A stretch of DNA of 63,126 bases from an uncultured Muribaculaceae bacterium (GTDB taxonomy: Bacteria; Bacillota_I; Bacilli_A; RF39; UBA660): contig CAZTRF010000001.1 in assembly GCA_964616495.1 (NCBI GenBank), positions 3,759 to 66,884 on the forward strand, read 5' to 3'. The first letter of the stretch is position 1, and each line of letters begins with the position of its first letter. The position numbers and the translations under genes were made by a program. Shown here one piece after another: positions 30,682 through 63,126 of this stretch. Below the pieces are notes generated by a model. It did not search any database. It had not been told where the DNA came from and saw only the letters and a list, made by a program, of their open reading frames with translations.

Positions 30682-32529
30682 ATGTTACCAGAGTTTTTAA
30701 GAAATAGAAAAATTTTTATTCTTGGTGCTATAGCCAGTACAATTGTTTTGGCATTAGGTCTTTCTTATGCCTTCTTTTCACGTGAAAGCTTGTTAGGAGA
30801 AACAAGCAATAATACGATAAATATTAATACGATAAGTAGTGGAAGTATTAGTCAATCATTTACGGCAACTTATGATAATGCTAGTAATGAGATTATGACA
30901 GGTATTTTAAATTTAGACACTATTAGTTATCGTAAGTTATCAAAATTTTATGTAGAAAATGAATATCCAGATTCTTTAGATATTTCAATTAATTGGGCCT
31001 TTGTTACAAGCACATTAATTCAAAGTGATAGTTCTTATAATTTATATGAATGTAGTCAATCTAATTATGAAAATGCGACTATATCAAATATAAGTACAAA
31101 TTGTACTTTGATAAGTCCATCAACCGGTAATTATTTACCAAATACTGGAGAATCTTCTAAATTGCAAAGCACTAATGAAATAAGTATTAGTGCAAATACA
31201 ACAAAGTATTATGCAGTCTTAGTTACAATAGGTGTGTCTAATAACACAAGAAGTTTCCAAGGAATAATTAAAGTAAAGGATCGTTTAACTCATGTTTTAA
31301 CCCTAGATTTAAATGGGGGAACAATAAATACGGCTATATCAATGGATTTAAAAAATGGCGATAGTGTAACAATTCCAAATCCAACAAAGACCGGTTATAC
31401 ATTTGGCTCATGGAATTTAACTGTAGGTTTAGATAGTACCCTAGTATCATCAACTTTTACTATGGGAACAACCGATTCGACTTTACAAGCAATATGGGTG
31501 GCTAATACATATACAGTGACTTATAATTGTAATGGTGGCACTGGTGGTAGCACTGCAAATAGTATTCACACTTACGATGTGTCTAAAAGTTTAACAACTA
31601 ATGGATGCTATAAGCTTACTGCAGGCAGTGGTGGAATGGTTTATTATCTGAAGGGGTGGGCGACAACTTCAACAGCAACAACTCCAAACTACACAAACGG
31701 ACAGAGTATACTAAATTTAACATCAATTGGCAATGATACAATTAATTTATATGCAGTTTGGAGTGCTTTATTTAGTTATTCTACATCATATTTAGTATTA
31801 GATGATTATGCCAATACTGGTATTGCAGGTGATTGGCGGATTAAACTATTAACTAATGGAATTTTTACTTCTTTAGCTAATAACTCGATTGACGTATTTT
31901 TAGTTGGCGGAGGAGGCGGCGGAGCAAATTCTGGTAGTAAAGCAAGTAGTAGTGAAGGAATAGGTGGCGGTGGCGGAGGAGGCTATACAAATACAACGTC
32001 TGTTTTCTCTTTATCTGGAAATACCGATTATGCTGTTGTCGTTGGAGCTGGCGGTTCAAATGGAAATCCAGGCTTAAATGGAGGAAGTTCTTCATTTGGT
32101 AACTTGTCTGTACAAGGTGGAGAAGGCGGATGCCGAAAGACAAACAATTGTGGTGGAGATGGTGGTTCTGGAGGGAGTTCTTATTATGGAGCAGGTGGAA
32201 GCAATGGAAGCAATGGTGCTAATTTCACAACAACGCGCGGAATTGGACAAGGAACTACAACTTGTGAATTTGGACAAGGCTTATTAGGATCTGGTTGTAA
32301 TACTGGAGTAACTCTTTACGCTGGAGGTGGATCAGCAGGTACTTGGAATGCATCAGCCTTAGCTGGAGGATTAGGTGGTGGTGGTAGTGGTGGAGCATCA
32401 AATGCTAGCGGTAGTGCTGGTACTGTCAATACTGGTGGTGGTGGTGGCGGTGGCGGAGGTAACGATGGTGGAAATCCTAGCGGAGCAGCTGGTGGATCAG
32501 GTATTGTCATTATTAGAAACGCTAGATAA
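30682..32529 (+). CDS. Secreted surface protein: SipW/TasA-type signal + TasA-like N-domain + Listeria-Bacteroides (Flg_new) repeats + glycine-rich C-terminal domain
   Basis: The signal reads ...IVLALGLSYAFFS, compared with the camelysin/TasA motif GGTFAYFSD. Flg_new repeats are LTLDLNGGT...PTKTGYTFGSWN and YTVTYNCNGGTG...YLKGWA. The last 230 aa or so are Gly-rich (VFLVGGGGGGANSG...GGSGIVIIRNAR). The protein is paralogous to 47147-49759 over the first 290 aa or so. Confidence 0.75.
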   Translation: MLPEFLRNRKIFILGAIASTIVLALGLSYAFFSRESLLGETSNNTININTISSGSISQSFTATYDNASNEIMTGILNLDTISYRKLSKFYVENEYPDSLDISINWAFVTSTLIQSDSSYNLYECSQSNYENATISNISTNCTLISPSTGNYLPNTGESSKLQSTNEISISANTTKYYAVLVTIGVSNNTRSFQGIIKVKDRLTHVLTLDLNGGTINTAISMDLKNGDSVTIPNPTKTGYTFGSWNLTVGLDSTLVSSTFTMGTTDSTLQAIWVANTYTVTYNCNGGTGGSTANSIHTYDVSKSLTTNGCYKLTAGSGGMVYYLKGWATTSTATTPNYTNGQSILNLTSIGNDTINLYAVWSALFSYSTSYLVLDDYANTGIAGDWRIKLLTNGIFTSLANNSIDVFLVGGGGGGANSGSKASSSEGIGGGGGGGYTNTTSVFSLSGNTDYAVVVGAGGSNGNPGLNGGSSSFGNLSVQGGEGGCRKTNNCGGDGGSGGSSYYGAGGSNGSNGANFTTTRGIGQGTTTCEFGQGLLGSGCNTGVTLYAGGGSAGTWNASALAGGLGGGGSGGASNASGSAGTVNTGGGGGGGGGNDGGNPSGAAGGSGIVIIRNAR

Positions 32530-35579: not shown

Positions 35580-36977
35580 GTGAAAGTAGCATTATTAGGA
35601 ATAAATGATAAAAAACATATTAAAGAACAAATTAAAATATTATCAGCTGCCGGAAGATTATCAAGATTTAAAGGAAATGTTAGTGAAGTATTAGAAATAT
35701 GTAATGATTATGATAAAAATTTAAATTTTATTAAAAGAGTTATTGGAATGGGCCATGAATCTATTACTGATCATGACTATTTAGTTTTTTCAATTATTGA
35801 TGTAACACCAATAATTGAGCAAACAATTATTGAAGAAAGATTATGCTCATTTACAATCAAATCAAGACGGGAAGTAGACTTTAGCAAAGCTGGATTTTAT
35901 ACGCCCATCTTTAGAGATAAATTTGGTAAACCAATAAATAATCAAGATAAATGGAAAATGAAATATCGCAATCATATGAAATATTTATTTAAGAGCTATA
36001 GTAAATTATTAGAAAAAGGTATTAATAAAGAAGATGCCCGATTTATTCTTCCATACTCATATCATAGTAATATTATTATGGGCGTTGATGCTCATATTTT
36101 GAAAAATTTAATTATTAGGTTTACCAAAGGTAAAGAAAGTAGAATAGCAGAATTAAAAGAGTTTGGGGAAAAACTACTTAAAATTGCTACTAAAAGAACC
36201 CCTTATTTAATAGAATTAATCGAAAAGGAAATTCCAAATTATGAGGCAGAAAAATTTATTGATAGTAAAATTAAAGATAAAGATTATAAAATAGTACCAA
36301 ATGTTACACTTTTAAGCTATACTTCTAATGTCGATGAAACTATATTTGTAACCTATTTAATGCAACATTATCAGTATGATTATAAAAAAGCTTTGGAAAT
36401 ATATCATGGTATTTTAAATGAAAATAAAGATATATTAGAAAAGTGGATTAAATTAATAGGCGAGTCTTATGAAAAAGAAGTTTTAACAGCTATTAATTTT
36501 AGATTTCAAATACCTTTATCCTTAGCTGTTTTAACTCATTTATCTCGTCATCGAACACATGATATTATTGTCCCAGATTTTGTTCCAATTCATAATTTAA
36601 TGGCTTATAAAACTCCAGAATCGATTAATAAGAATTGCAAAAATGAATATGATCAAATATATGCTAATAACAATAAAATATATGAAGAATTTAAACAAGC
36701 GGGCATTATGGCTGAAGATTTAATTTATTTTCATTTAAGTGGTAATATGGTGAATGTTTTAACTAATATGAATGGGAAAGATATACATTGGATTCTTCAT
36801 TTAAGAGAATGTACTAAAGCTCAATGGGAAATTAGGAGTGTGGCTCAAAGTATTCATCATGAAATAAGTAAAGTATCAAAATATTTTCCAATGATTTTAG
36901 GACCCACTTGTATAACTAAAGGTTTCTGCCCTGAAGGCAAAGAATCATGTGGTAGAATAAAAAACATTAAAAAGTAG
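35580..36977 (+). CDS. Double-length ThyX-like (flavin-dependent thymidylate synthase family) protein
   Basis: 465 aa. The N-half has GHESITDHDYLVFSI...EERLCSFTIKSRRE, with the ThyX RHR motif degenerated to EER. The C-half has LTHLSRHRTHD, an intact RHR motif. GTG start after a GGAGG RBS. Confidence 0.5.
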   Translation: MKVALLGINDKKHIKEQIKILSAAGRLSRFKGNVSEVLEICNDYDKNLNFIKRVIGMGHESITDHDYLVFSIIDVTPIIEQTIIEERLCSFTIKSRREVDFSKAGFYTPIFRDKFGKPINNQDKWKMKYRNHMKYLFKSYSKLLEKGINKEDARFILPYSYHSNIIMGVDAHILKNLIIRFTKGKESRIAELKEFGEKLLKIATKRTPYLIELIEKEIPNYEAEKFIDSKIKDKDYKIVPNVTLLSYTSNVDETIFVTYLMQHYQYDYKKALEIYHGILNENKDILEKWIKLIGESYEKEVLTAINFRFQIPLSLAVLTHLSRHRTHDIIVPDFVPIHNLMAYKTPESINKNCKNEYDQIYANNNKIYEEFKQAGIMAEDLIYFHLSGNMVNVLTNMNGKDIHWILHLRECTKAQWEIRSVAQSIHHEISKVSKYFPMILGPTCITKGFCPEGKESCGRIKNIKK

Positions 36978-36997: not shown

Positions 36998-37055
36998 TAT
37001 TCTAATTATGATATATTTATATAAGAAAAAATAACCATAAAAAGGAGTGAGTGAT

Positions 37056-38225
37056 ATGAGAAAAATATTACAAAGTATAGGATTATTTTTAATTGCTTTT
37101 ATCATTGCTATTCCTGGAGTTTTGGCTGATAGTATATCAACTTCAATCTCAGGAGCAAGTGAAATCGAAGCTGGAGAGGAGTTTACTTTAACCTTTAAAG
37201 CAACCAGTGGTACTAACATATGGGGACTTACTGCTAAACTCAACTATGATAGCAGTAAACTATCAATAGTATCAAGTAGTGCTGGTAGTGGGTTTAATTT
37301 AACTTTAGGTGCCAATATTGTTATTGATGCTACTAGTGGAGTTAATGCCCCTTTTATTATCTGTACTATTAAATTTAAAGCTTTGACAGGCTTTGTAGCT
37401 AATGAATCAACTACTGTGTCTCTTTCAAATGTTCAAGGCTCAGATGGAAATGTTGATATTAATGGTAGTGGTTCATCTAAAATTATAAAAGTTGTTCCAC
37501 CAAAATCAAGCAATAACTATTTAAGCGGTTTAGCAGTTGATGTTGGGACAATAAAATTTAATAAAGCAACTAATTCTTACACTATAGTAGTTGAAAACGC
37601 TGTAACTACGGCTAACATTACAGCTACTGCTGAAGATGCTACCGCTAAAATAAGTGGAACTGGATCAAAGCAATTAAGCGTATATACCAATACTTTTAGT
37701 ATCGTTGTAACAGCTGAAAATGGAACCAAAAGAACATATAAAATCTATATAAAAAGAAAAGATCAAGATGGAAATACTGCCAAAATAAGTAGTGATAATT
37801 TTTTAAAAGAATTAACTATTACAGGTTACAACATTGACTTTAATAAGGCTACTACTGAATATAGCATAGAAGTAGAAAATGATGTTGAAGTACTAGAAAT
37901 AATAGCTAGTGCTAATGATAGTGGAGCTACTGTTAATGTTATAAAGCCAGATGCTTTAGTTACCGGTGAAAATATTATCACAGTTGAAGTAACTAGTAAA
38001 AGTGGTGAAAAAGCCACTTACACTATTAAAGTAAATAAAAAAGAAAAACAAGTAGATCCGGAACCAATAGTGGATGATAAAAAAGAAGAAGAAAAAGAAA
38101 ACAAAGATACTTCTTTCAGTCATACAAAGTGCTATATATTTATTGGAGTGTTAGGAGTTTTATTTGTTGCATCATTTATATTAAATATCTTATTCTATAA
38201 AAAAATAAAAAATAGAGGTGTTTAA
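37056..38225 (+). CDS. Membrane-anchored cohesin-domain protein with two cadherin-like beta-sandwich (Cadg) modules (mini-scaffoldin/anchor)
   Basis: Signal peptide ...IPGVLA|DS. The cohesin-like module (nt 37128-37502) reads ISGASEIEAGEEFTLTFKA...GLTAKLNYDSSKLSIVS...ICTIKFKA. The two Cadg modules read NNYLSGLAV...YTIVVEN...ITATAEDATAKISG...IVVTAENGTKRTYKIYIKR and NFLKELTI...YSIEVEN...ASANDSGATVNV...VEVTSKSGEKATYTIKVNK. A K/E-rich linker and a C-terminal TM anchor follow. ATG 37056 lies 8 nt after an AAAGGAG. Confidence 0.65.
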   Translation: MRKILQSIGLFLIAFIIAIPGVLADSISTSISGASEIEAGEEFTLTFKATSGTNIWGLTAKLNYDSSKLSIVSSSAGSGFNLTLGANIVIDATSGVNAPFIICTIKFKALTGFVANESTTVSLSNVQGSDGNVDINGSGSSKIIKVVPPKSSNNYLSGLAVDVGTIKFNKATNSYTIVVENAVTTANITATAEDATAKISGTGSKQLSVYTNTFSIVVTAENGTKRTYKIYIKRKDQDGNTAKISSDNFLKELTITGYNIDFNKATTEYSIEVENDVEVLEIIASANDSGATVNVIKPDALVTGENIITVEVTSKSGEKATYTIKVNKKEKQVDPEPIVDDKKEEEKENKDTSFSHTKCYIFIGVLGVLFVASFILNILFYKKIKNRGV

Positions 38226-38228
38226 TAT

Positions 38229-41200
38229 ATGAAAAAAACATTCAAAAAACTAATTAGTTTAATAAGCATTATTTTAATGCTTTTTCCAGAATTATTTCCT
38301 TTTGTAGGAATAATGAAAGTTGATGCTGCTTTATATGAAGGACCAACTGTAATTGAAAATATTGATTTAAACTTTACAGATCATCAATCTCAAGACATTA
38401 CTCTTGGTGAGGGCGAAACATTTTCAAGCTGTTCTTCTGAATCACCTAGAATAGCATCAACTACGATATCAGCTGATAATAAGGTTTGTACTATAACTGC
38501 TTTATCTTACGGAATATCATCTGTTTATTTAAATATATATGCCGGTGGTAGCTATGAGAAAACAATATTTGTTAATGTTGATAACAATACTTTCTTAAAT
38601 AGCTTTTTAGATTCAATTCCTAATGAAATGACAATGACTTATCCCGAATATCAAAAATACATTCAAAATTATAGTCTAAATAGTAATAACCCAAATGATG
38701 TTAACGTTTATTTTGAAGAAAACTCTTTTGAAAATGGAACCTTCATAACTACAGCTGAAGTAACTGATAAAAATTATTACTATTTTAATAATGATGGTCA
38801 GGTTCACTATTACGAAAATGAGGACGATGCCACCATTTCTAAAGAAGTTCGTTTTAATATAATCGGCACGATGCTTTATGGTGACCTAGTTCATGCTTCA
38901 TTATCTTATTTATCAAAGATTGATTTTGTAACAAATACTGAAGTTAATTATGATAATTTAATATTTGTAAGCAGTGATAATAATATCTTTACTGTTGATA
39001 ATAAAGGCTATGTTAAGGGTGTATCTCTCGGCAATGGATATGTTTATGTATATGATAAAGAATCTGATGTGTATTACAAATTAGAGGTAAATGTTCAAGC
39101 TGGTTTTAATAATAATCCTGATTTCTCAGCTATTACTAGTTATTTTAACAATCAAACATTTGATGTTAATATAAGTACTAGTACGATAGCCAAAAAAGCT
39201 ATAAAATATACAGAAGGTGGTACATATACTATTGACCCAGCATCTTATTTTACAGCACTATATAACGAGCATTTTACACCAATATATGGTAGCAATATGC
39301 CTTATTTTAATAGTTTATCTTGTACCAACAATGTTTGCTCAGGTAGCGGTAGTTATTATTATGGCTCATCAGGATCTATCGATATAACAAATGCGACCTT
39401 TAATTTTAATGGAATAAAATTATTAGAAACTTATCTTATAGCTGATCCAAGTTCAAGTTTTGATTTAAACATTATAAAGTTAGGGGCAAGTGCTGATTCA
39501 GAAATCAGCTTTACTTATGATAGCGATTATTTAACTGAAAATGCTAACGGAACATTTTCTGCATTAAAAACGGGAGTTACAGAAGTAACCGCCAGTGATG
39601 GAACTTATCAGAGTACTGCTAAAATGTTTATTTCACCAACATATACTGATATTGCCCCAATTACAAATTATTTTAATAATTTATCGTCTATTACCTTGAC
39701 TTATCCTGTAACAGTTTTTAATGATTTAAATTTTTTATCAAAAGCTGTTAAAAACTATCTTACTGAAAACACACCTGAAAGTAATGGATATAAAAATTTA
39801 TATGAATATGATGTTAAATGCATAAATACTAATATGTGTCAAATCAAAAAGAATGAATATTATGATGCTGAGCATCTATATCCATCAGGTTTTTATTTAT
39901 CTTCTTTCAATTCTAAGATAATTCGCATAAATTATTCATTGGCTGAAGCTACAGAACTTACAGCTGCTGTTAATGAATTAAATAATATTGATAGTAAAAT
40001 TAATATTGCTTTTGAAGATATAGAAAAAGCTTATTATAGCTGTGATGCTTCAGACACTTGTTTTAACGAAAAAATTATAGAGGCAGCAGAATTGCAATTT
40101 AATTCATCAATGTTAAGTTTAAGCGACTTCGTTACAATTGAACAAATACCTGATATTTACTATACTATGGAAGGAAAAGTTCAGCTATCACTATATGGTG
40201 AAGTATTGTATAGCAAGCCAGTAGTAATAACTTATAATAAAATTCATACTCTTTCTCATTTATTAGAAAGAACCGAAGAATATAAAATAAATAATTATAA
40301 AGAAAAAATAGTTGATATGAGTACAACTCTTAATAATTATTCATTAACCACTAATGATATTACCATTACCTTAGTAAGAGATAAAATTTATAATATTGCA
40401 TATCATAATGATAATGAGCATGAAATCACATATAATTTTATGATCGATCAAAAAGAAAAAGTAAAAATAACAGGATTATCATTTGGGTCAAATTTTCCAG
40501 GTAAAAATATGGAAATTGGTGATGAAGAAGTTCTATATTATTCTGTTTATCCGGAAAATGCTAATTATGGTACCGTAGAATTTGTAAGTGCAGATCCAAC
40601 AATTATATCGGTTAATAATACTACTAGAACTATTACTGCTCTAAAAAAAGGTTATACAACTATTTATCCAAAGATAAATGGTAAAGTCCAAAAACATAGT
40701 GGTTATCTATCATGTGTAGATACCACCTATGAAGATATTCTTAATGATATGTTAGAAGCTAATGGCCCAAGTAATGTTACTATAACTTATTATGATTTAC
40801 TAAACTTTGATTTGATAAGTGCCATAACTAATGAAGTAAGTAATCAAATAAATAATAATTTAAATAGGCCGTTAAGTTCAACGGTTGAAGTTGAAGAGAT
40901 TGGAACAACTGGAACATATAAATATCGTTTAGTTTATTCAGAATATATTTACGGATCATCTGAATCCTCTTTTAGTTATTCTCAATATAAAAATATTACC
41001 TATGATAAAAAAGGAATAAGTACTACTGATAACGAATATAAAATAGATATTAATGAAATAGTGGATACTAAATTATCATTTAGTGAAGCTGATAATATAA
41101 ACTTAAATATTAGAATTGAAGATCCAAGTATTGTTTCATATAGTAATAGTGGGATTTTAAAAGGACTTAAAACAGGCAAAACTTATATTTCTATTTATGA

Positions 41201-42875
41201 TAAGTTTGATAAATACTATAATGATATTTATGTTACTGTAGATGGGGATACTCTTTATACAAATATTATTGATGAGTTAAATGATATCGATACAGTCATA
41301 CTTCCTAGCTCAGCAATTGCTAATACGTATGGTTCATATAATCAGATTTTTGATACAGTACTTTTAAGAAAAGTCGATAAATATGATTTATTTAATACCC
41401 ATACTACAATATGCAATAATGTAAATAGTACTTGTACTTTATCACTTAACTATGAATTAAATGGTCAAGAAGAAGAATTTTCAAAAACATATGCTTTTTT
41501 AATACAAGGTTTAACTATAGAAAACAATGACATTGAATTAGCAACTGGAGAGTCATATACATTAGAATATACTTCAATTCCTAATACTGACCCAGTGACT
41601 ATAACCTCTTTAACACCAGAAACTTGTAGTATTGTTGATGATGAGGTATTGGCTTTACAACGAGGAGGATGTTACGTAAAAATTAAAAATAGCACTGATT
41701 TTGATGTTTTAAAAGTAGCCATTGATAAAGATGATATTATTGCCGAATATCAAGATTTACTTGACTCGCTTCCTAATGAAATAACTTTAAAAATAGAAGA
41801 GTATAATGGTGATATAGGTATGGAAGATTATAGTTATATGGCTGCATATTCAATGCTCTTTAAATTAGCTATTGTTGATTTATTAGACTTAAACGAAAGT
41901 GAAATCACCAATTTTTATCCAAGCTTTTTTGATTTAAATGAAGATGATGGAACAATGCCAGTTTCTTTATATCCTAATTTATCATACCATGATGAAATTA
42001 GTGGTGAATATTATGGAGTTAATATTAGTCCAGTTGAAAAAGCGGAACCAATAAAAATATTATACGATAATGATTTTATTGCTGATCAAGAAGAGGTTGA
42101 TGCTATAGTTGCCACTTTGCCTAAAGAATATCGTCTAAGTATTGATCAAATAATTAAATATCGTCTATTGGGTGGACAGATGATTGATTATACAGACTTT
42201 TCTAATATCTTAGATGCTTATCCCGATTATGAATTACAATATGATATGGCCGGAGCTGGTGGAAGTATGGCTATGGTAGGGCAAAATTATGCTTATACTG
42301 TTTTAAAAGATGGATATGTAGTGGCTTTTGGAAGTGTTGATGTTTATATGTATTTTGAAGATGAAAACACCACGGTTATGACACAAGAAGAATACATTGA
42401 ATATTTAAAAGGCCTTGTTACTGATGAATATATTTCTGTTCAAAATGAAATATCAAATTTAACAACTTTAGCTGTTAGAATGGATATTAGCGAGCCAACT
42501 GAATTATTAGAAGATTCAATATATGGCTTAGGAGATACAACCCCGGAAGTTACTGTTACTTATATTAGAAACAGTGCTGACCCAACAGTTGATACTTACG
42601 ATATTCGAGTTGAAGATATTGCCTTTAGATTAACGGTTGGTAAAAAAATAGCTCAAGGAGCAACTTATGATGCTAGTTATCTAATAGGAGATTTAACTGG
42701 AGATAATGTTATTTCAACAACCGACTTGGTCAAACTAAGAAGACATTTAGCGGGAATTGAATCAGTTACTGGTAATAAACTAAAAGCCGCTGATATTAAT
42801 CGTGATAATAATGTTACAACAACTGACTTGGTCAAACTAAGAAGACACTTAGCGGGAATTGAATCAATAGCTTAA
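38229..42875 (+). CDS. 1548-aa secreted multi-domain protein with Big_2 Ig-like domains and a C-terminal type-I-like dockerin
   Basis: It has an N-terminal signal/anchor. Big_2-like segments include VEFVSADPTIISVNNTTRTITALKKGYTTIY and FVSSDNNIFTVDNKGYVKGVSLGNGYVYV. The C-terminus GDLTGDNVISTTDLVKLRRHLAGIE...ADINRDNNVTTTDLVKLRRHLAGIE forms the two Ca-binding F-hand repeats of a dockerin. Confidence 0.7.
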   Translation: MKKTFKKLISLISIILMLFPELFPFVGIMKVDAALYEGPTVIENIDLNFTDHQSQDITLGEGETFSSCSSESPRIASTTISADNKVCTITALSYGISSVYLNIYAGGSYEKTIFVNVDNNTFLNSFLDSIPNEMTMTYPEYQKYIQNYSLNSNNPNDVNVYFEENSFENGTFITTAEVTDKNYYYFNNDGQVHYYENEDDATISKEVRFNIIGTMLYGDLVHASLSYLSKIDFVTNTEVNYDNLIFVSSDNNIFTVDNKGYVKGVSLGNGYVYVYDKESDVYYKLEVNVQAGFNNNPDFSAITSYFNNQTFDVNISTSTIAKKAIKYTEGGTYTIDPASYFTALYNEHFTPIYGSNMPYFNSLSCTNNVCSGSGSYYYGSSGSIDITNATFNFNGIKLLETYLIADPSSSFDLNIIKLGASADSEISFTYDSDYLTENANGTFSALKTGVTEVTASDGTYQSTAKMFISPTYTDIAPITNYFNNLSSITLTYPVTVFNDLNFLSKAVKNYLTENTPESNGYKNLYEYDVKCINTNMCQIKKNEYYDAEHLYPSGFYLSSFNSKIIRINYSLAEATELTAAVNELNNIDSKINIAFEDIEKAYYSCDASDTCFNEKIIEAAELQFNSSMLSLSDFVTIEQIPDIYYTMEGKVQLSLYGEVLYSKPVVITYNKIHTLSHLLERTEEYKINNYKEKIVDMSTTLNNYSLTTNDITITLVRDKIYNIAYHNDNEHEITYNFMIDQKEKVKITGLSFGSNFPGKNMEIGDEEVLYYSVYPENANYGTVEFVSADPTIISVNNTTRTITALKKGYTTIYPKINGKVQKHSGYLSCVDTTYEDILNDMLEANGPSNVTITYYDLLNFDLISAITNEVSNQINNNLNRPLSSTVEVEEIGTTGTYKYRLVYSEYIYGSSESSFSYSQYKNITYDKKGISTTDNEYKIDINEIVDTKLSFSEADNINLNIRIEDPSIVSYSNSGILKGLKTGKTYISIYDKFDKYYNDIYVTVDGDTLYTNIIDELNDIDTVILPSSAIANTYGSYNQIFDTVLLRKVDKYDLFNTHTTICNNVNSTCTLSLNYELNGQEEEFSKTYAFLIQGLTIENNDIELATGESYTLEYTSIPNTDPVTITSLTPETCSIVDDEVLALQRGGCYVKIKNSTDFDVLKVAIDKDDIIAEYQDLLDSLPNEITLKIEEYNGDIGMEDYSYMAAYSMLFKLAIVDLLDLNESEITNFYPSFFDLNEDDGTMPVSLYPNLSYHDEISGEYYGVNISPVEKAEPIKILYDNDFIADQEEVDAIVATLPKEYRLSIDQIIKYRLLGGQMIDYTDFSNILDAYPDYELQYDMAGAGGSMAMVGQNYAYTVLKDGYVVAFGSVDVYMYFEDENTTVMTQEEYIEYLKGLVTDEYISVQNEISNLTTLAVRMDISEPTELLEDSIYGLGDTTPEVTVTYIRNSADPTVDTYDIRVEDIAFRLTVGKKIAQGATYDASYLIGDLTGDNVISTTDLVKLRRHLAGIESVTGNKLKAADINRDNNVTTTDLVKLRRHLAGIESIA
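42687..42872 (+). other. Dockerin module (two F-hand repeats)
   Basis: See above. The two repeats share a block of about 50 nt that is nearly identical at nucleotide level (about 42718-42768 and 42823-42873). Confidence 0.7.
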
Positions 42876-42980: not shown

Positions 42981-43667
42981 ATGGTTTCAAAAGAACATCT
43001 AAAAGAATTAGAAAGTACTTTTAGTCAAAATGAAAAACATGGTAATCTTTTAGTACCTAGTCATAATTTTACTAAAGGGCTTGGAAATATTATATTGACT
43101 GCTCCCCATACCGTTATTACAAGCAAAATTAAAAATGGAATTGAAACTATAAAAGAAAATGAATCTTATACTGGGGCTATTACTTTAATGTGTGGTGAAA
43201 TTGCTGGATGTCATACCATGACCCGTAACAATTATAATGATGTTACTGCTATCACTAATTTTTATAATGAATATTTACAAGATTATATTTCTTCTTATGG
43301 AATAGTTGGTCATTTAGATATTCATGGTGCTGCCAGGACTAATCCTTATGATGTATCAATAGGTACTAATCATCTTGAACATATTTTTTACGATCAACAG
43401 GTTTACGAAATTGTTAATGATGGATTTAATGATTATGGAATTAATAATGTGGTTTGGAATTCTAAATTTCAAGCCTCTACTAAAGCAACTTTATGTCGTC
43501 AGGTATTCTTAGGTAAAATGATTCATACTCTTCAACTAGAGATAAATAAAAATTATCGCGATTTAAATGATTTTGAGAAAATGGTAGCTCTTATTAAGGC
43601 CATTTCTGAAATAGCTATAAATTTAAATGAGCATTTATCTTCCGGTGGTTTAGGATATGGCAGATAA
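42981..43667 (+). CDS. Metal-dependent amidohydrolase-like protein (N-formylglutamate amidohydrolase / PghP poly-glutamate hydrolase-like fold, tentative)
   Basis: The conserved pattern APH...ENESYTG...HLDIHGA...GTNH...LQLEINKNYR (H, E, H, E candidate ligands) is shared with the C-terminal domain of the next gene. The family assignment is from memory only. Confidence 0.4.
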   Translation: MVSKEHLKELESTFSQNEKHGNLLVPSHNFTKGLGNIILTAPHTVITSKIKNGIETIKENESYTGAITLMCGEIAGCHTMTRNNYNDVTAITNFYNEYLQDYISSYGIVGHLDIHGAARTNPYDVSIGTNHLEHIFYDQQVYEIVNDGFNDYGINNVVWNSKFQASTKATLCRQVFLGKMIHTLQLEINKNYRDLNDFEKMVALIKAISEIAINLNEHLSSGGLGYGR

Positions 43668-45330
43668 TAGTTTATTAAATATTAATACCTATGATTATCC
43701 ATTAGACAAAAACTTGATTGCTCAAACGCCTATAAAAAATCGCGATCAATCAAAATTAATGGTTGTCAATCGTAAAAATGGTGATATTTCTCACCATATT
43801 TTTTCTGATATTATAAATTACTTAAATAAGGGCGATTGCCTAGTACTAAATGATACTAAAGTAATACCCGCCAGACTATTTGGAGTAAAAGAAGCAACAA
43901 AAGCTCATATTGAAATACTTTTATTAAAAGATAATGGTAATAACTTATGGGATTGCCTTATTAGAAATTCCAGAAGATTAAAACAAGAAGATATTATTTC
44001 TTTTGGTGAAGGATTATTAAAAGGGAAAGTCATTTCTAAGGCCTCTGATGGGGTAATAAAACTTCAATTAATATATGATGGCATTTTATATGAAATACTT
44101 GATAAACTAGGAGAAATGCCCTTACCGCCATATATTCATAAACATTTAAAAGAACAAGATCGTTATCAAACGGTATATGCTAAAAATATTGGTAGTGCTG
44201 CAGCTCCTACTGCCGGATTACATTTTACAAAAAAATTACTTGACGATATTGAAAAAAAAGGTATAATAATTTGCTACGTCACATTGCATGTTGGTTTAGG
44301 TACTTTTAGACCAGTTGAAGAAGATAATATTTTAAATCACCATATGCATAGTGAATATTATGAAATGACTTCGGATGTGGCAAAATTATTAAATGATGCT
44401 AAAGAAAGTCATCATAAAATTATTGCTGTAGGAACAACCTCTACTAGAGTATTAGAAACCGTCTATAGTAAATATAATTCCTTTAAAGAATCTTTTGGAA
44501 ATACCGATATTTTTATCTATCCGGGATATACCTTTAAAGCAATTGATTCTTTAATTACTAATTTTCATTTGCCAAAATCAACTTTAATGATGCTAGTAAG
44601 TGCTTTTAGTAGTAAAGATATTATTATGAATGCTTATAGAGAAGCTATGAATAAAAAATATCGTTTCTTTTCATTTGGTGATGCCATGCTTTTGGATATT
44701 CCTAATTATGAAAAATTGTTAGACGAGTTTAAAAATCAAAAGATTTATTTAAAAAAAGATAATTTTAAAATTTTAAAAGGAACCATTCCTATAATGATAT
44801 CAGTTCCTCATAGTAAAAAGCATTTACGAGATGGAATGGTTAAAAATAATGAACATAATACAGCTAGAATTGCTAAACTATTATATTGTTTAACTAATTG
44901 TCATTTAATCTATGCCTATAAACAGGGAGATAATGACCATAACTATGATGAAAGTTCTAATTATAAAAAAAAGTTAAAAGCCTATATAAAAGAAAATAAC
45001 ATTAAGATATTAATAGATATTCATGGTATGGCTGATTCTTATGACATCGAGTTAGGAACTAACCATTATCAAAATATTTTTAATGATAAAGATATTATAA
45101 ATAATATTAAAGATATATTTTATAAAAATAATATAAAGAATGTATTTGTCGACCGAAAATTTAAAGCTAAAAGACATAATACTATTAGCAATTACATAAA
45201 TAAAGAATGTAATATTAAAACTATTCAACTAGAAATAGGCCCTAAGTATCGTAAAATCAAATTAAGACCAAAATCATTTAATAAAATTATAATAAGTTTA
45301 GAAGAAATCATAAATAAGAATAAGGAGTGA
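43657..45330 (+). CDS. queA: S-adenosylmethionine:tRNA ribosyltransferase-isomerase QueA fused to a C-terminal amidohydrolase-like domain
   Basis: Residues 1 to about 347 are canonical QueA (LIAQTPIKNRDQSKLMVV, LVLNDTKVIPARLFG, PLPPYI, AAPTAGLHFT, GTTS.RVLE, NFHLPKSTL, RFFSFGDAMLL). Residues from about 365 to 557 repeat the pattern of 42981-43667 (VPH...NNEHNTA...LIDIHGM...GTNH...IQLEIGPKYR). Confidence 0.85.
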   Translation: MADNSLLNINTYDYPLDKNLIAQTPIKNRDQSKLMVVNRKNGDISHHIFSDIINYLNKGDCLVLNDTKVIPARLFGVKEATKAHIEILLLKDNGNNLWDCLIRNSRRLKQEDIISFGEGLLKGKVISKASDGVIKLQLIYDGILYEILDKLGEMPLPPYIHKHLKEQDRYQTVYAKNIGSAAAPTAGLHFTKKLLDDIEKKGIIICYVTLHVGLGTFRPVEEDNILNHHMHSEYYEMTSDVAKLLNDAKESHHKIIAVGTTSTRVLETVYSKYNSFKESFGNTDIFIYPGYTFKAIDSLITNFHLPKSTLMMLVSAFSSKDIIMNAYREAMNKKYRFFSFGDAMLLDIPNYEKLLDEFKNQKIYLKKDNFKILKGTIPIMISVPHSKKHLRDGMVKNNEHNTARIAKLLYCLTNCHLIYAYKQGDNDHNYDESSNYKKKLKAYIKENNIKILIDIHGMADSYDIELGTNHYQNIFNDKDIINNIKDIFYKNNIKNVFVDRKFKAKRHNTISNYINKECNIKTIQLEIGPKYRKIKLRPKSFNKIIISLEEIINKNKE

Positions 45331-45336
45331 TTTATT

Positions 45337-46194
45337 ATGGAAGAAGAAATTAATTATCGTGAAAGATTTGACACCCTTTTAAATATTCAACCCAATTATG
45401 GAATAGATCATGTTAAAAAACCAGTCAAATTTAATTATATTGGATTAGAAATTGAAATTGCAGTTATCTATGATCGTAGTCGTTATACCTTCATTAGGAC
45501 TTTAATTAAACAGGTCATTAAATTAGTTGGCAATAATGGCTATTTTACTAGTGATGGAACAATTATAGGAGATTATTCTTTTGAAATAGTAATGAAACCA
45601 ATGAGTGTTCCAAAAATAGTTAAGTTTTATCGAACCCTCAAAAAAATAATTAAATTTAGTGATGGATCCCTTGCTTTTGATAAGGAACATAATTGTGGTC
45701 TTCATATGAATTTTAATCAATATGATGTTCCTAATATTGAAGAGGCTCATAAAAGGTTATTACTATTATGTAATGAAAAACCTGAGTATTTTGATGAAAA
45801 CGTTTATAAAAGAACCATTTATAACTTTACATTTAAAGATTATGTGGAGTTCCAAAAGACCGTTGCCAACAAGTATATTGGCATTAACTATTTAAATAAG
45901 AAAATAGTTGAAATAAGAAATATAAAAGTTAGTTTATCATCTTCTAAATTAGAAGAAATAATGAAAGACTTATTATATTGTTTGTTTGAAGAAAAATTAC
46001 CATCTCATAAAGAAAAAATGAAAGTTCGTAAACTAAAACATGTCGTTAATGCAGCCTTTGCTAAAGAAAATAATAAAAGTTTAAATGAAGGATTAGATGA
46101 AGGATATATCTTAATAAAATTTGATAAAACCATTCCTAAAGTAATTGAAATTACCGACGAAGTGAAATCTGTTTTAGATGAGGTTACAAAATGA
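45337..46194 (+). CDS. Amidoligase-family (glutamine-synthetase-fold COOH-NH2 ligase, PF12224-like) protein, tentative
   Basis: YIGLEIEIAV...FTSDGTIIGDYSFEIVMKPM...CGLHMNFN matches the remembered GxExE ... DxS ... E.v..P ... GlHvH pattern of that family. Confidence 0.5.
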   Translation: MEEEINYRERFDTLLNIQPNYGIDHVKKPVKFNYIGLEIEIAVIYDRSRYTFIRTLIKQVIKLVGNNGYFTSDGTIIGDYSFEIVMKPMSVPKIVKFYRTLKKIIKFSDGSLAFDKEHNCGLHMNFNQYDVPNIEEAHKRLLLLCNEKPEYFDENVYKRTIYNFTFKDYVEFQKTVANKYIGINYLNKKIVEIRNIKVSLSSSKLEEIMKDLLYCLFEEKLPSHKEKMKVRKLKHVVNAAFAKENNKSLNEGLDEGYILIKFDKTIPKVIEITDEVKSVLDEVTK

Positions 46195-47090
46195 AAAGAA
46201 TAGATGCATGGCTATTTTTTGCTAATGTTTCATATAAGGAAAAAGAAAAAAATGGTTATATTAAAGAAATAATTAAAAAGGCTCAAAAAGAATATGATTT
46301 TAATTTAGAGGTTAAAAATGTTCAAAAGTTTCACATTGTTTCCGGTGAAAAAAACGAACTTTATTATGATGGAAAGCTAGTGAAACAATTACCTACATAT
46401 GCCATTATTAGAAGGTATGAAATTTATTTAATGAGACAATTAGAACTAATGGGAGTTCAAGTATTTAATAGTGTTTCAGCAATGATTGATGCTCGTAATA
46501 AGATGAAAGTTCATCAAATATTAGCTTCTAATCATATAAATACTCCTAAAACCGTTTACACAGTATTTAAAAGTAATTGTGATAATGTTCTATATAAAGA
46601 TATTACAAAAATATTAGGTAGTAAAAAATTTATTTTAAAATGGATATATGGTTCTCAAGGAAAACATGTTTATCTAGTACAAAATGAAGCAGCATTTAAT
46701 GAATTAGTCAAAAAATATAAAGGCAGAATTCTTTGTCAAGAATTTATTGAAGAAAGTTTTGGAATGGATATTAGAGCTTATGTCATTAATAGTAAATTTA
46801 TTGGTGCAGCCATTAGAAAAAGTAATGGTGATAACTTCAAAAGTAATCTAGCTCAAGGAGGAGAAGCTCTTCCAGTAGAATATAATGATGAAATAATTAA
46901 TATTGCTGAAAAAAGTGCTAAAGCAGTTGGACTTGATATTTGTGGCGTCGATATTTTAGTATCTAAAAAAGGTTATTATATCTGTGAAGTAAACGCTTTA
47001 CCAGGTTTCAAATCAATAAAAAAGGTATGCGACATTGATGAAAAAGATATTCTTTTAGGCCTTATCAAAAATAAAATAGATAATAAATAA
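46191..47090 (+). CDS. RimK-family ATP-grasp ligase (alpha-L-glutamate ligase-like)
   Basis: ARNKMKVHQILASNHINTPKT, ILKWIYGSQGKHVYLV, LCQEFIEESFGMDIRAYVI, FKSNLAQGGEA and GLDICGVDIL...YICEVNALPGF. The start overlaps the upstream stop (ATGA). Confidence 0.85.
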   Translation: MKRIDAWLFFANVSYKEKEKNGYIKEIIKKAQKEYDFNLEVKNVQKFHIVSGEKNELYYDGKLVKQLPTYAIIRRYEIYLMRQLELMGVQVFNSVSAMIDARNKMKVHQILASNHINTPKTVYTVFKSNCDNVLYKDITKILGSKKFILKWIYGSQGKHVYLVQNEAAFNELVKKYKGRILCQEFIEESFGMDIRAYVINSKFIGAAIRKSNGDNFKSNLAQGGEALPVEYNDEIINIAEKSAKAVGLDICGVDILVSKKGYYICEVNALPGFKSIKKVCDIDEKDILLGLIKNKIDNK

Positions 47091-47092
47091 TG

Positions 47093-47121
47093 TTGAAATA
47101 TTCTAACTCCTATCTTATAAT
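47093..47121 (+). promoter_or_regulatory. Promoter for the second glycine-rich protein gene, interleaved with the upstream terminator
   Basis: TTGAAA (47093-47098), 17-nt spacer, TATAAT (47116-47121). The -10 box sits in the loop of the 47105-47141 hairpin. Confidence 0.55.
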
Positions 47122-47145
47122 AAACCTATAGGATAGGAGTTTTTG
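47105..47145 (+). terminator. Rho-independent terminator of the queA operon
   Basis: AACTCCTATC (47105-47114) pairs with GATAGGAGTT (47132-47141), followed by TTTTG. The 3' arm contains the AGGAG RBS of the next gene. Confidence 0.65.
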
Positions 47146-47146
47146 T

Positions 47147-49759
47147 ATGTGGAAAGAACTTTCTAAAAAAACTAAAATGATCATTATTGGAATATTGTCT
47201 ATTACCATTCTTTTAGTAGTGGGAATAACCTATGCCTATTTTACAGCAGCCACCGTAGGAGGAAACGCCAGTGCCAATTCAATCCAATTACTAACTGGTA
47301 CTCACGGAAATATAACTGTTAATTATCTTAATGGGAATGGCCTTATTAATATGAATAATGTTGATTTAAAAGAAAATGAAAAAGGAACCATAAAAAAAGA
47401 AATGGTTAAGTTTAGTGTAAATTATCCCGGCAGTGAAGAAGAAAATATATCAATTAATTGGAAAGAAGTAACTAATAACTTTTGTCAATATCAACTGGGA
47501 AATATATGTACTAATAACGATGAAGACAACTATGTTGGAGATGAAATATATTTTGATTTATATGAGTGCAATACTCAAAGTGATTTACAAAATGCCACTA
47601 CAACTATTTTGAATAATTGTACAAATATAACCAATGAAAATAATAGTGCGCCTTTAACCGGGGAAGAAAAACAATTACAAAATGTAGAAGTTATCCCAAT
47701 AATTAATGAAGTTAAATATTATATAATGATTTTAAATATTAATAATCTAAATGTTTTGCAAGACTATAATCAAGGAAAAGCCTTTCAAGGAAGAATTGAA
47801 GTTGTCCTTCGTAATGAGTTTGTTTTAACTTTAAACTTAAATGGAGGGGTTAGTGAAGATTTATTAACTCAAAACATTCGAACTGGTGAAACCATTATTC
47901 TTACCGAGCCAACTAAAGAAGATTATACTTTTATCGAATGGAAAGTAAATGTAGGAGGAACCGATGCTTTATTATCAGGAAATACTTTTACTATGGGTAA
48001 AGAAAATACAACCTTAAAAGCAATTTTTGCAAAAACCATCACTGAATTTTCAGCTAATAACTTAATTACTTATGAAGAATTTAATCCAGAAGCAGATGGT
48101 TATTATAAAGTAGAACTATGGGGTGCAAAAGGTGGAAATTCTAATTATACTGGCGGAGCTGGAGCTTATGTTAGTGGTAGCATTGAAATGAAAGAGGGAG
48201 AAACCTACTATATTTATATTGGGGGTTTAGGTAACCTCACAAGTACCGGTGGATATAATGGTGGAGGAAGAGGGCAAAGCAAGAATCCATCTGGAATGAG
48301 TGGTGGTGGTGGTGGAGCCACTGACATCAGGTACTTTGGTAACATAACCCCTTCGGCAGAGGAATTATTATGGAATTCTTCTTTAGGACTTAACTCTAGG
48401 ATTATGGTTGCTGGTGGCGGAGGTGGCGGTGGAAATAACGGTGACGGAATAAGTGGCAATGGTGGAGCTGGTGGAAATACAATTGGTGGAAGCGGAACTT
48501 CATCAGGTTCTGACTGTTGTGGAAATTCTGCAAATGCTAGTTATAATGGAAAAGGTGGTTCCCAAATTGCTGGGGGTAGTGGCGGTATGGCAGCTGGCAG
48601 TTTTGGTGTTGGAGCAATTGATTCTAATGTCAAAGGCGGTTCTGGTGGCGGTGGCTACTATGGAGGAGGCAGCGGATATTATGGCGGTGGCGGTGGCGGT
48701 GGTAGCTCATATATAAGTGGCTCTTTAGGAAGTATAGCTATTACTGCATCTGACAATCGTACCGCTAAGTGTAGTGCTGAAGTTGCTGCATCAGATTTAA
48801 CTTGCTCTTTCCACTATAGTGAAAAAGCATTTTACTTAACCACTATGAATCAAGGAACGAATTCAGAAGCGGGAAAGGCAAAGATAACTTATGTAGGAAA
48901 ACAATTAAATGTTCCAAGTTATAATATTAGTACTACCACAACTTCCAGTAGTCCTTTAATTATCGATTACATGAATACTTATCAAGAAATAAACGTCTTG
49001 TCTTCAGGATATTATAAAATAGAATTATGGGGAGCAAGTGGAGCAACATATAGCACAAGCTGGGCGCCTTCTGGAAAAGGTGGCTATACGCAAGGCACAA
49101 TATACATGGAGCAGGGAGAAAAATACTACGCTTTTGTTGGAAGCGAAGGACTAAGAAGAAATACCATTAATGGTGGTTATAATGGGGGTGGCGAGGCCTT
49201 AAGTAACTATGCTGCTGGTGGTGGTGGAGCCACTGATATTAGGTACTTTAGTACAACACCGTCTATTGAACAATTACAATGGAATTCCCCTTTAGGATTA
49301 AATAATCGTATTATGGTAGCTGGTGGTGGCGGTGCTGGTGGCTATAATGGAGATAATAAATATGGTACTGGTGGGGCTGGTGGAGGATTAACCGGTGGTA
49401 CAGGAACTATTGGAATTTTAAATTCGACCTATTGGGTTGTAGAAGCAGATTCTTCTAGCAATTGGACAAGAGGTACCGGAGGAACACAAAATGCTGGAGG
49501 AACCAATTATCCAGTAGGAGGCTTTGGTGTTCCAGGAACTCCAGGAGGAACAACATATTCTGGGGCTGGTGGTGGTTATTATACTGGTGGTGGCGGTTAT
49601 TATGGTGGTGGTGCTGGTGGCGGATCTTCATATATTAGTGGCCATTCAGGATGCACAACCCATTTAAATGGCAAAACTTTTGCTTCTACTGAAACTACTT
49701 CAGGAGTAAAATCTGGGAATGGTCAAGCCAAAATAACATATATTGGAAATAGTCTTTAA
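47147..49759 (+). CDS. 870-aa secreted protein: SipW/TasA-type signal + TasA-like N-domain + Flg_new repeat + two tandem ALK/LTK-type glycine-rich (PF12810-like) domains
   Basis: Signal ...LLVVGITYAYFTAA. Flg_new repeat LTLNLNGGV...PTKEDYTFIEWK. The first Gly-rich copy (about 48035-48905) reads YYKVELWGAKGG...GGAGAYVSG...GETYYIYIGG...GGYNGGGRG...GGGGGATDIRYF...RIMVAGGGGGGG...KAKITYVG. The second copy (about 48950-49756) reads YYKIELWGASG...GGYNGGGEA...GGGGATDIRYF...RIMVAGGGGAGG...QAKITYIG. Confidence 0.8.
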   Translation: MWKELSKKTKMIIIGILSITILLVVGITYAYFTAATVGGNASANSIQLLTGTHGNITVNYLNGNGLINMNNVDLKENEKGTIKKEMVKFSVNYPGSEEENISINWKEVTNNFCQYQLGNICTNNDEDNYVGDEIYFDLYECNTQSDLQNATTTILNNCTNITNENNSAPLTGEEKQLQNVEVIPIINEVKYYIMILNINNLNVLQDYNQGKAFQGRIEVVLRNEFVLTLNLNGGVSEDLLTQNIRTGETIILTEPTKEDYTFIEWKVNVGGTDALLSGNTFTMGKENTTLKAIFAKTITEFSANNLITYEEFNPEADGYYKVELWGAKGGNSNYTGGAGAYVSGSIEMKEGETYYIYIGGLGNLTSTGGYNGGGRGQSKNPSGMSGGGGGATDIRYFGNITPSAEELLWNSSLGLNSRIMVAGGGGGGGNNGDGISGNGGAGGNTIGGSGTSSGSDCCGNSANASYNGKGGSQIAGGSGGMAAGSFGVGAIDSNVKGGSGGGGYYGGGSGYYGGGGGGGSSYISGSLGSIAITASDNRTAKCSAEVAASDLTCSFHYSEKAFYLTTMNQGTNSEAGKAKITYVGKQLNVPSYNISTTTTSSSPLIIDYMNTYQEINVLSSGYYKIELWGASGATYSTSWAPSGKGGYTQGTIYMEQGEKYYAFVGSEGLRRNTINGGYNGGGEALSNYAAGGGGATDIRYFSTTPSIEQLQWNSPLGLNNRIMVAGGGGAGGYNGDNKYGTGGAGGGLTGGTGTIGILNSTYWVVEADSSSNWTRGTGGTQNAGGTNYPVGGFGVPGTPGGTTYSGAGGGYYTGGGGYYGGGAGGGSSYISGHSGCTTHLNGKTFASTETTSGVKSGNGQAKITYIGNSL

Positions 49760-50931
<1,172 letters not shown>

Positions 50932-50971: not shown

Positions 50972-51283
50972 ATGAATATTAAAAAAGTTATAATAATAAT
51001 GACTATTATAGCAATATTTTTAATAATAGGAATTCCTACTATGGCCAAATTAAAAGATGAACAAGATAAAAGTATTGAATTGGTTATTACAAATAAGATA
51101 AAAGATAATGCTAATAGGTGTTGGAATACCAACACCTGTACCTCTAATAAGGTTTATCTAAAAGACTTATATAATTTAGGATATTTAGAACAGATTATTA
51201 ATCCTAAAACTAAAGAATATATAAGCGAAGAGTCATATGCTATTAAAGAAAGTAACTTAGTAAAGGTAACTATTATTTATTAA
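50972..51283 (+). CDS. Small membrane-anchored protein with pilin-like layout but no prepilin cleavage motif
   Basis: The N-terminal hydrophobic helix VIIIMTIIAIFLIIGIPTM is followed by KLKDEQDKS...LKDLYNLGYLEQIINPKTKEY, reminiscent of ComGC-type pseudopilin bodies. No G-F-T-L-I-E motif is present. Confidence 0.35.
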   Translation: MNIKKVIIIMTIIAIFLIIGIPTMAKLKDEQDKSIELVITNKIKDNANRCWNTNTCTSNKVYLKDLYNLGYLEQIINPKTKEYISEESYAIKESNLVKVTIIY

Positions 51284-63006: not shown

Positions 63007-63059
63007 TGAAAATTATCTTTTTTTGTGATATATTAGAAGTAATATAAAGGATGATAAAA

Positions 63060-63126
63060 ATGAAAAAAGGATTTACCTTAATTGAAATGATTGCAACAAT
63101 AGTGATAATTTCAATAGTCAGTATTG
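63060..63126 (+). CDS. Type IV pilin/competence pseudopilin, N-terminal fragment (continues beyond window)
   Basis: MKKGFTLIEMIATIVIISIVSI... carries the class III signal (KKG|FTLIEM) with the conserved Glu at +5. An AAGGATGA RBS is present. Confidence 0.75.
   Translation, partial: MKKGFTLIEMIATIVIISIVSI

Follow-up and report, generated by a model that had tools for sequence, protein, structure and literature searches.

Two human receptor kinases and a small number of phage tail fibers are the best-known carriers of the ALK/LTK glycine-rich domain, and the polyglycine-rich tip of phage S16 gp38 (PDB 6F45) is a related tip. Bacterial proteins carrying the corresponding Pfam family, PF12810, have been catalogued already, some of them under the NCBI name "glycine-rich protein," and no functional study of such proteins was found in the literature searched. 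Here we describe one of them, encoded at 47147..49759 in a 63-kb stretch of contig CAZTRF010000001.1 from an uncultured, low-GC bacterium of gut type. The whole of this stretch is referred to as the window; all coordinates refer to it, and all window features described are on the forward strand. The gene (870 aa, with an ATG start and with the stop codon included in its coordinates) encodes a leader, an N-terminal module (N-module), a Listeria-Bacteroides repeat, and two tandem glycine-rich domains (GRDs), and its product is called the GRD protein. What is new is this combination of a carrier with heads and its connection to SipW-type operons.

In phage Pam3, the TNF-like and Gly-rich domains of the tail fiber protein gp24 serve receptor recognition, and these domains resemble the Caenorhabditis elegans ALK ectodomain (PMC9608196). 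TasA-family proteins are fiber subunits that associate by donor-strand exchange (PMC9674648, PMC10151520). In a further report, a Phe at the P2′ position is described as a hallmark of SipW substrates and as making TasA a poor substrate of a general signal peptidase (PMC10269814). We give an even chance to the proposed mechanism, namely that the GRD protein is an exported surface or fiber-associated adhesin in which a TasA-like carrier presents two ALK-type heads.

Tandem ALK/LTK-type domains and predicted fold

The identities of the domains in the GRD protein (PF12810, the B-repeat, and so on) are virtually certain. The two PF12810 domains claimed in the initial annotation were confirmed by the predicted fold and by the family hidden Markov model (HMM; ALK_LTK_GRD), against which the whole protein scored 245.9 bits in two stretches (cutoff, 24.5 bits). 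Copy 1 (aa 303–587; 48053..48907), which comprises a TNF-like beta-sandwich and a glycine-rich, presumed polyglycine-II subdomain and is 27% Gly, matched on its own with an E value of 3.1e-37 over profile positions 7 to 242 of 243; copy 2 (aa 606–870; 48962..49756) did so with an E value of 7.7e-38 over positions 5 to 243 of 243, and the halves scored 129 to 131 bits. Gly makes up 19% of the whole protein and 25 to 27% of its C-terminal 570 aa. The copies are separated by a Ser/Thr-rich linker (aa 588–605; 48908..48961; NVPSYNISTTTTSSSPLI), with a predicted local distance difference test score (pLDDT) below 50 at aa 587–600.

Six motif series had been reported from inspection of the sequence, and each was found once per half and in collinear order in both halves: YYK[VI]ELWGA at aa 319 in copy 1 and aa 622 in copy 2, GE.YY..[IV]G at aa 351 and 657, GGYNGGG at aa 368 and 676, GGGGATDIRYF at aa 387 and 691, NS.LGLN.RIMVAGGGG at aa 410 and 713, and [KQ]AKITY[VI]G at aa 577 and 860. 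A minor deviation is WGASGA in copy 2, where WGA.GG had been claimed. When aa 303–587 were aligned with aa 606–870, the first 131 aa showed 56% identity with a composition-corrected E value of 2e-32, a similarity that by this measure is far above chance for Gly-rich sequence. The C-terminal, most Gly-rich parts of the two copies gave no alignment with each other. A recent tandem duplication was rejected because each copy is nearer to the GRDs of other proteins than to its partner: copy 1 scores 137 bits against GRDs of other proteins and 108 bits against copy 2, and only 49 of 221 GRDs in the family have their best match within the same protein.

A full-length AlphaFold2 (AF2) model was built from 21 collinear homologues. 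Both GRDs were modeled mostly at pLDDT 70 to 92, with some confident segments assigned neither to helix nor to strand. Gly-rich stretches such as aa 481–530 (pLDDT 74 to 91, no DSSP helix or strand) look as polyglycine-II would, a geometry that we presume from homology and model confidence. In a Foldseek search of the PDB with the full-length model, the 21 top significant matches were all ALK/LTK TNF-like/Gly-rich (TG/GRD) chains (E values of 2e-7 to 3e-5, probability of 1.0), including 7nwz, 7nx1, 7n00, 7lrz, 7ls0, and 7lir. Apart from matches to the B-repeat, these were the only significant PDB fold matches. Sequence identity to the solved ALK/LTK structures is 14 to 19%, and a phmmer search of the PDB sequences with the whole protein returned single-chain variable fragment (scFv) Gly-Ser linkers only and no ALK; the link to ALK therefore needed the Pfam HMM and the fold search.

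The likeness to the ALK/LTK TG domain thus extends to both halves, which match PF12810 end to end, and to a beta-sandwich core with long ordered Gly-rich segments. In contrast to the receptors, the GRD protein has two tandem copies rather than one, and their context is that of bacterial secretion. A transmembrane or kinase portion is lacking, as are EGF-like and MAM/LDLa domains, and no cytokine ligand is known for it; its Pfam matches were confined to PF12810 and the Flg_new families, with none to a kinase. It is therefore unlike a single-pass receptor that has an intracellular kinase and is activated by ALKAL cytokines.

The predicted viral structures of BFVD yielded 63 significant Foldseek matches (best E value, 2.9e-33), among them virion structural proteins of cyanophages and Caulobacter phages, short tail fiber proteins, and tail collar proteins. 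Among single-domain superpositions, the best showed an RMSD (root mean square deviation) of 4.8 Å over approximately 320 columns at 28 to 30% identity. As in the phage proteins, in which tandem copies also occur, the fold may be placed at the distal tip of an elongated structure, where the receptor is bound. Where the role of the TNF-like/Gly-rich fold is known, it is that of a distal binding head, and ligand-bound structures with ALKAL cytokines (7nwz, 7n00) are among the PDB matches; by analogy, a similar role is suggested for the bacterial copies.

That phage virion and tail fiber proteins are the nearest structural relatives besides ALK/LTK raises the question of whether the gene is phage derived, as a remnant of a prophage or tailocin tail fiber or as a recent horizontal insertion. 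Its position, in which it splits the conserved queA-tgt pair, and the raised local GC content would agree with such an origin. Nevertheless, the neighbors are housekeeping genes (ruvAB, queA, tgt, relA, hisS, aspS, and gatAB), no phage genes were found among them, and codon usage matches that of host genes. The GC content at third codon positions (GC3) is 0.21, compared with 0.13 to 0.17 in the neighbors, the choice of Gly codons is the same, and GC2 is 0.58; the rise in GC therefore stems from Gly codons, at codon positions 1 and 2. Furthermore, tail fibers have neither a leader for secretion nor a bacterial B-repeat, whereas this protein has both, and in place of a trimeric helical shaft it has a TasA-like carrier; there is no adjacent chaperone gene. 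A phage origin is accordingly very improbable, and recent insertion or prophage descent was rejected on codon usage and context. The gene is chromosomal and long resident rather than a recent import, its codon usage is native, and neither phage context nor virion membership was found for it.

A Listeria-Bacteroides repeat had also been claimed. The InlB-type B-repeat (Flg_new, PF09479; aa 227–292; 47825..48022) was recovered at 29.7 bits (cutoff, 27), and Flg_new_2 (PF18998) matches it at 29.8 bits. The NCBIfam repeat model TIGR02543 stayed below its cutoff on the GRD protein (13.5 versus 20.95 bits). The repeat was modeled at pLDDT 75 to 85 and matched the B-repeat fold of InlB (2y5p), with a template modeling (TM) score on the target of 0.73 to 0.75 and an RMSD of 4.2 Å.

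Leader and N-terminal module

The leader (aa 1–30; 47147..47236) consists of a Lys-rich n-region and a hydrophobic core at about aa 11 to 27, followed by GITYA↓YFTAA (aa 26–35). Cleavage is predicted after Ala30 (TYA↓YF), with Phe at P2′ as in TasA and camelysin. The context of this site (T-Y-A30↓Y-F-T) has a small P1 residue and the aromatic-Phe pair at P1′ and P2′, and Ala30, the predicted P1 residue, is invariant in an alignment of 22 family members. The protein has one strongly hydrophobic segment, which is N-terminal.

The N-module that follows (aa 31–225; 47237..47821) is a predicted all-beta sandwich with four Cys and appears to be a divergent TasA/camelysin-like fiber-subunit module. 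Residues 1 to 222 are 59 to 70% identical to three relatives (P0008, P0010, and P0011) whose C-terminal region differs; DUF6273 passes the Pfam cutoff in P0011, falls short of it in P0010, and is undetected in P0008. A second gene of this kind lies in the window at 30682..32529 and encodes a 615-aa protein with a GLSYAFFS leader, a homologous N-module (32% identity to that of the GRD protein, E value of 4e-25), Flg_new (PF09479, E value of 3.2e-11), and Gly_rich_2 (PF21722, E value of 3.6e-17). Since the same module precedes GRDs, Gly_rich_2, and a DUF6273-type region, the first 225 aa or so constitute a conserved carrier with swappable payloads, and because the 615-aa protein shares this plan, the genome encodes at least two carrier-plus-head proteins.

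An exhaustive profile search with the N-module covered 1.84e9 (1.84 billion) representatives and returned 88 relatives only, many of them stand-alone proteins of 200 to 260 aa with a VGATFAYFTA leader and a conserved C-terminal strand, Q(N/D)YNQGK.F.G.I.V. This search superseded a word-indexed homologue search with the N-module alone, which gave one match and missed known relatives. A scan of the genome collection with N-module profile A1 gave no confirmed locus, and neither A1 nor A3 found TasA among the PDB sequences.

Homology to TasA emerged at the level of the family. Peptidase_M73 (PF12389) matches 5 of the 22 family members (best, 1.4e-10), the NCBIfam TasA model matches 2, and TIGR04088, which describes the SipW-dependent-type signal, matches 3. 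A profile of the window type finds P0150 (E value of 8.3e-9 among the 1.84e9 proteins), which itself passes PF12389 with 41.8 bits over profile positions 13 to 188 of 196. When the family profile was compared by HHalign with the M73-positive N-domain of P0017, a relative with the same overall architecture as the GRD protein, the probability was 96.7% and the E value was 4.3e-10. An AF2 model of the N-module by itself is all-beta (pLDDT of 70, predicted TM score of 0.68), and aa 31–44, which follow the predicted cleavage site, have low confidence in the monomer model, a result compatible with a donor strand and not diagnostic of one. The relationship to TasA is thus proposed from sequence profiles and not from the fold.

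Since the wider N-module family matches a Pfam entry named "Camelysin metallo-endopeptidase," the GRD protein might be a metalloprotease of the camelysin type (Peptidase_M73) joined to domains that target it to substrates. Such a role is scarcely credible: the GRD protein has four His in total, one of them in the N-module, and neither HExxH nor any other metal-site motif; it has no direct match to the family; and current structural work describes TasA-family proteins as fiber subunits (PMC9674648, PMC10151520). A metalloprotease role was rejected for want of a metal-binding motif. The motif LPxTG is likewise absent from the GRD protein.

Family-level linkage to SipW-type signal peptidases

The stand-alone N-module genes are arranged in tandem: on one contig (L007), all five genes are members of the family, and 58 of 80 metagenome loci have two to four copies. 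Of the 62 loci whose downstream sequence is long enough, 12 have, directly 3′ of these arrays, a gene for an archaeal/SipW-type signal peptidase I (TIGR02228). These 12 loci are L100, L104, L118, L120, L133, L142, L143, L153, L154, L156, L164, and L165. The peptidase gene is on the same strand and within 600 bp of two tandem N-module genes, whose products have the VGATFAYFTA leader; the peptidase carries the signature SGSMEP...GD(V/I)ITF...THR...TKGD and scores 91 to 114 bits on TIGR02228 (cutoff, 51.85), the next-best model being that of Bacillus SipW. One subunit next to such a peptidase passes TIGR04088. The order of two subunits and a peptidase is the tasA-sipW arrangement. Some of the peptidases in these loci have long C-terminal extensions of up to 360 aa.

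GRD genes and subunit genes were found together in two human gut loci. In both, a GRD protein with a TasA-type leader is encoded approximately 2 to 3 kb upstream of two stand-alone subunit genes, and the clusters (L155 1848..6580 and L166 5060..10654) encode, besides that GRD protein and the two subunits, a membrane protein of 170 aa and a further protein of 340 aa that has a GFSYASFFS leader. In another locus (L004 8770..10101; also L005 and L006), just downstream of secG, a stand-alone subunit is followed directly by a 443-aa protein with two or three partial N-module-like segments, and this protein might serve as an accessory or anchor subunit in the manner of TapA.

The GRD protein therefore resembles TasA, camelysin (CalY), and BsaA with their SipW peptidases in having a leader with Ala at P1 and Phe at P2′ and then a beta-sandwich of approximately 200 aa, and its family resembles them in having stand-alone tandem subunits followed by a SipW-type peptidase gene. 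The differences are that its module is too diverged for PF12389 or the TIGR04088 cutoff and has four Cys, that it bears a C-terminal payload of approximately 645 aa whereas TasA-family proteins have been described as fiber subunits and not as payload carriers, and that no sipW or tapA-like gene lies next to it.

Several results weigh against assigning the protein to this class or against the adhesin model more generally. On the first 60 aa, TIGR04088 reached 14.4 bits (E value of 0.033, aa 15–37; cutoff, 19), and on the full-length protein it reported nothing. Peptidase_M73 gave no match on aa 1–225 even at E ≤ 10, nor did any other Pfam family match there, and the window-type profile matches the SipW-linked subunits weakly (best, 31.5 bits). 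The model of the N-module, which was searched with its signal helix included, had no PDB match at E ≤ 0.001, the TasA fiber 8aur_A ranking 10th (E value of 0.027, TM score of 0.29); in the full-length model, the N-module is poorly predicted. Neither a SipW-type peptidase nor a stand-alone N-module gene is present in the 63-kb window, and the same two are absent from 1.2 Mb of flanks around the GRD genes of other genomes. A scan of the first N-module loci for signal peptidase I motifs found none; metagenome loci of stand-alone subunits were the only ones with such a peptidase. The link to TasA is transitive, because TIGR04088 was below its cutoff and Peptidase_M73 was undetected directly. As for the heads, the TM scores on the ALK/LTK targets are moderate (0.31 to 0.49), and the word "adhesin" rests on analogy, as no functional test of a bacterial PF12810 protein was found in the literature searched. 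Of the TasA/SipW-type N-terminus put forward in the initial annotation, the TasA homology and the linkage to SipW-type peptidases held at the level of the family, and the direct signal-model match for this protein did not. Because the direct HMM tests failed while transitive homology and family linkage were found, the protein is best described as working like, and being distantly related to, the TasA/SipW class and not as a member of it.

Alternatively, the GRD protein may be a stand-alone surface or secreted protein that takes part in no fiber, with an ordinary Sec signal that is cut by a general signal peptidase or is kept as a membrane anchor and with the N-module serving as a stalk for the GRDs. 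The lack of a SipW gene or stand-alone subunit in the window, the subcutoff TIGR04088 score, and the N-module model without a significant TasA match would all fit this explanation, as would the finding that in relatives GRD genes stand alone in housekeeping surroundings, with no genes for assembly close by. Against it, the leader with its invariant Ala30 and aromatic-Phe pair is common to subunits that adjoin SipW-type peptidases, GRD and subunit genes cluster in the two human gut loci, and the prepilin-type leader, the other one found on GRD homologues, likewise belongs to filaments. In addition, the P2′ Phe is described as making TasA a poor substrate of the general signal peptidase (PMC10269814). 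We regard a protein of this stand-alone kind as possible but on the unlikely side.

Distribution of the domain among bacterial relatives

A whole-protein search returned 424 relatives, and those with names belong mostly to uncultured "Bacilli bacterium" metagenome-assembled genomes (MAGs) or to Candidatus Nomurabacteria; the genome scan added Tenericutes, Erysipelotrichaceae gut MAGs, Bacteroidales, Saccharibacteria, and others. In one relative, the related GRD gene lies between polC and yqfD/ybeY/era. Leaders were counted by regular expression among 120 listed relatives of the 424, three of which match by the N-module alone and have no GRD. Of these 120, 48 have prepilin-type leaders and at least 27 have TasA-type leaders. 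Many of the 46 "other" leaders are of the AYMAPNINN type, which, as P0017 shows, can be M73 positive. Since both leader classes belong to filament subunits, the display of GRDs on filaments is independently suggested.

Type IV pilin-like GRD proteins (N_methyl, PF07963, plus PF12810; for example, P0012, P0015, and P0023) come from the same uncultured Bacilli lineages and share with the GRD protein the payload, often in tandem, and a filament-subunit N-terminus. In contrast, neither the prepilin motif (G↓F/M-x-x-x-E; G↓F-T-L-I-E) nor PF07963 is present in the GRD protein. With a TasA-type leader and no prepilin motif, it would need assembly machinery other than that of the pilins. The GRD protein is a bona fide PF12810 member with a genuine B-repeat, and it is not an ALK/LTK receptor, a pilin, or a phage gene product.

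The number of GRDs per protein among the listed relatives ranges from 1 to 5, which resembles structural repeats and, together with the conservation of the first GRD halves between copies, could be explained if the GRDs were rigid, self-associating blocks of a biofilm scaffold or surface layer and the protein were a structural matrix or coat component. TasA-family proteins are indeed scaffolds of the biofilm matrix (PMC9674648). However, in every characterized setting the fold binds a partner, either ALKAL cytokines (7nwz, 7n00) or the host receptor of Pam3 gp24; the C-terminal Gly-rich halves have diverged, so that variable binding surfaces fit better than a uniform scaffold; and swappable heads on one carrier point to specificity modules. 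We consider a purely structural role distinctly improbable.

Proposed model

In the model that we favor, that of a fiber-associated adhesin, the single hydrophobic segment, the four Cys of the N-module, and the family context suggest that the GRD protein would be exported by way of its N-terminal leader. An archaeal/SipW-type signal peptidase would then cut this TasA/camelysin-class leader after Ala30, and the N-module, by analogy with TasA, may plug the protein into a fiber of stand-alone N-module subunits, or cap such a fiber, through donor-strand exchange. The B-repeat would serve as a spacer. By analogy with phage fibers and ALK/LTK, the two distal GRDs are hypothesized to act as ligand-binding heads whose specificity may be set by their variable C-terminal Gly-rich halves. 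The N-module is a carrier with interchangeable heads: two GRDs in this protein, Gly_rich_2 in the product of 30682..32529, and DUF6273-type regions in relatives.

A much broader hypothesis, which we put forward tentatively and consider rather doubtful, is that uncultured gut Bacilli build SipW-processed, TasA-like fibers as a universal carrier of interchangeable heads, paralleled on type IV pilins. Such a modular, plug-in adhesin system would employ the receptor-binding fold of phage tail fibers and would point to bacterial or phage adhesins as the evolutionary source of the metazoan ALK/LTK ligand-binding domain. If the model is correct, it should provide a first functional handle on bacterial PF12810 proteins, widen the role of TasA-type fibers from that of simple scaffolds to that of carriers for specificity heads, and offer tractable bacterial models for ligand binding by polyglycine-II and for the origin of the animal domain. 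If it is wrong, the GRD protein is an ordinary multidomain surface protein of unknown ligand.

Transcription unit and neighboring genes

The reported location between queA and tgt agreed with the gene order, QueA being encoded at 43657..45330 and Tgt at 49804..50931. The order is lgt, ruvA, ruvB, a double thyX-like gene, a cadherin-like gene, a gene for a 1,548-aa Big_2/dockerin protein, one for an unknown 228-aa protein, and queA, followed by genes for a 285-aa protein and a RimK-family ATP-grasp protein, the GRD gene, tgt, and a small pilin-like open reading frame (ORF). The ruvAB-queA-tgt genes form a conserved block in Firmicutes, and here the block is interrupted twice, each time partly by surface-protein genes.

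The GRD gene is an independently transcribed unit bracketed by hairpins. A promoter-like TTGAAA-17 nt-TATAAT sequence (47093..47121), identified by consensus match only and agreeing with a sigma-70-like consensus at 11 of 12 positions, lies in the 56 bp that separate the rimK-like gene from the GRD gene. Its −10 element is inside the 5′ arm and loop of a hairpin with a perfect 15-bp stem followed by UUUUGU (47105..47141; −18.7 kcal/mol, z = −5.2, none of 200 shuffles as stable), which is terminator-like for the upstream queA/rimK unit. The ribosome-binding site (RBS), AGGAG (47135–47139), is within the 3′ arm of this hairpin and 7 nt before the ATG. Thus, a transcript from the gene's own promoter would start in the 3′ arm, would not contain the 5′ arm, and would have its RBS exposed, while the full hairpin could both terminate transcription and mask the RBS of read-through transcripts. 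Right after the stop codon, an AT-rich hairpin with a U-run (49758..49789; −9.8 kcal/mol, z = −5.3, none of 200 shuffles as stable) forms a terminator-like end of the unit; a consensus terminator scan missed it because its stem has no G-C pairs.

Several neighbors are unusual in their own right. QueA is 557 aa long instead of approximately 345 aa, with a C-terminal extension of approximately 200 aa that has a weak, subthreshold match to N-formylglutamate amidohydrolase (FGase). In the same segment (43657..47090), queA is followed by the gene for the 285-aa protein, which has no family match, and by that for the RimK-family ATP-grasp ligase, which overlaps the former by 4 bp; together these genes may form a small cassette, within the queuosine operon, for ligating peptides or metabolites. 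After tgt, a 103-aa ORF (50972..51283) has a weak ComGC-like pilin match (E value of 0.0034) and no canonical prepilin motif, and after gatB, a classic prepilin start, MKKGFTLIEM, at 63051/63060 opens an ORF that runs off the end of the window (63051..63126). With these pilin-like ORFs at 50972 and 63051, type IV pilin-like genes coexist with TasA-type carriers.

Between ruvB/thyX and queA (37047..42875) are encoded a 392-aa cadherin-like beta-sandwich protein and the 1,548-aa Big_2 protein, which has a type I dockerin at its end; the presence of such a domain in this low-GC lineage implies that a cohesin to pair with it is encoded somewhere in the genome. The 465-aa protein encoded at 35580..36977 contains two Thy1 (ThyX) stretches, is approximately twice the usual length, and is apparently a flavin-dependent thymidylate synthase fused in tandem. 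In an NCBIfam scan of the 38 other ORFs of the window, the results were dominated by ABC-transporter families, and the only Rfam match in the window was a ribosomal protein L21 leader (2658..2727; 40.7 bits). A homologue of MreC is encoded at the start of the window (189..848) and indicates that the organism is walled and rod shaped.

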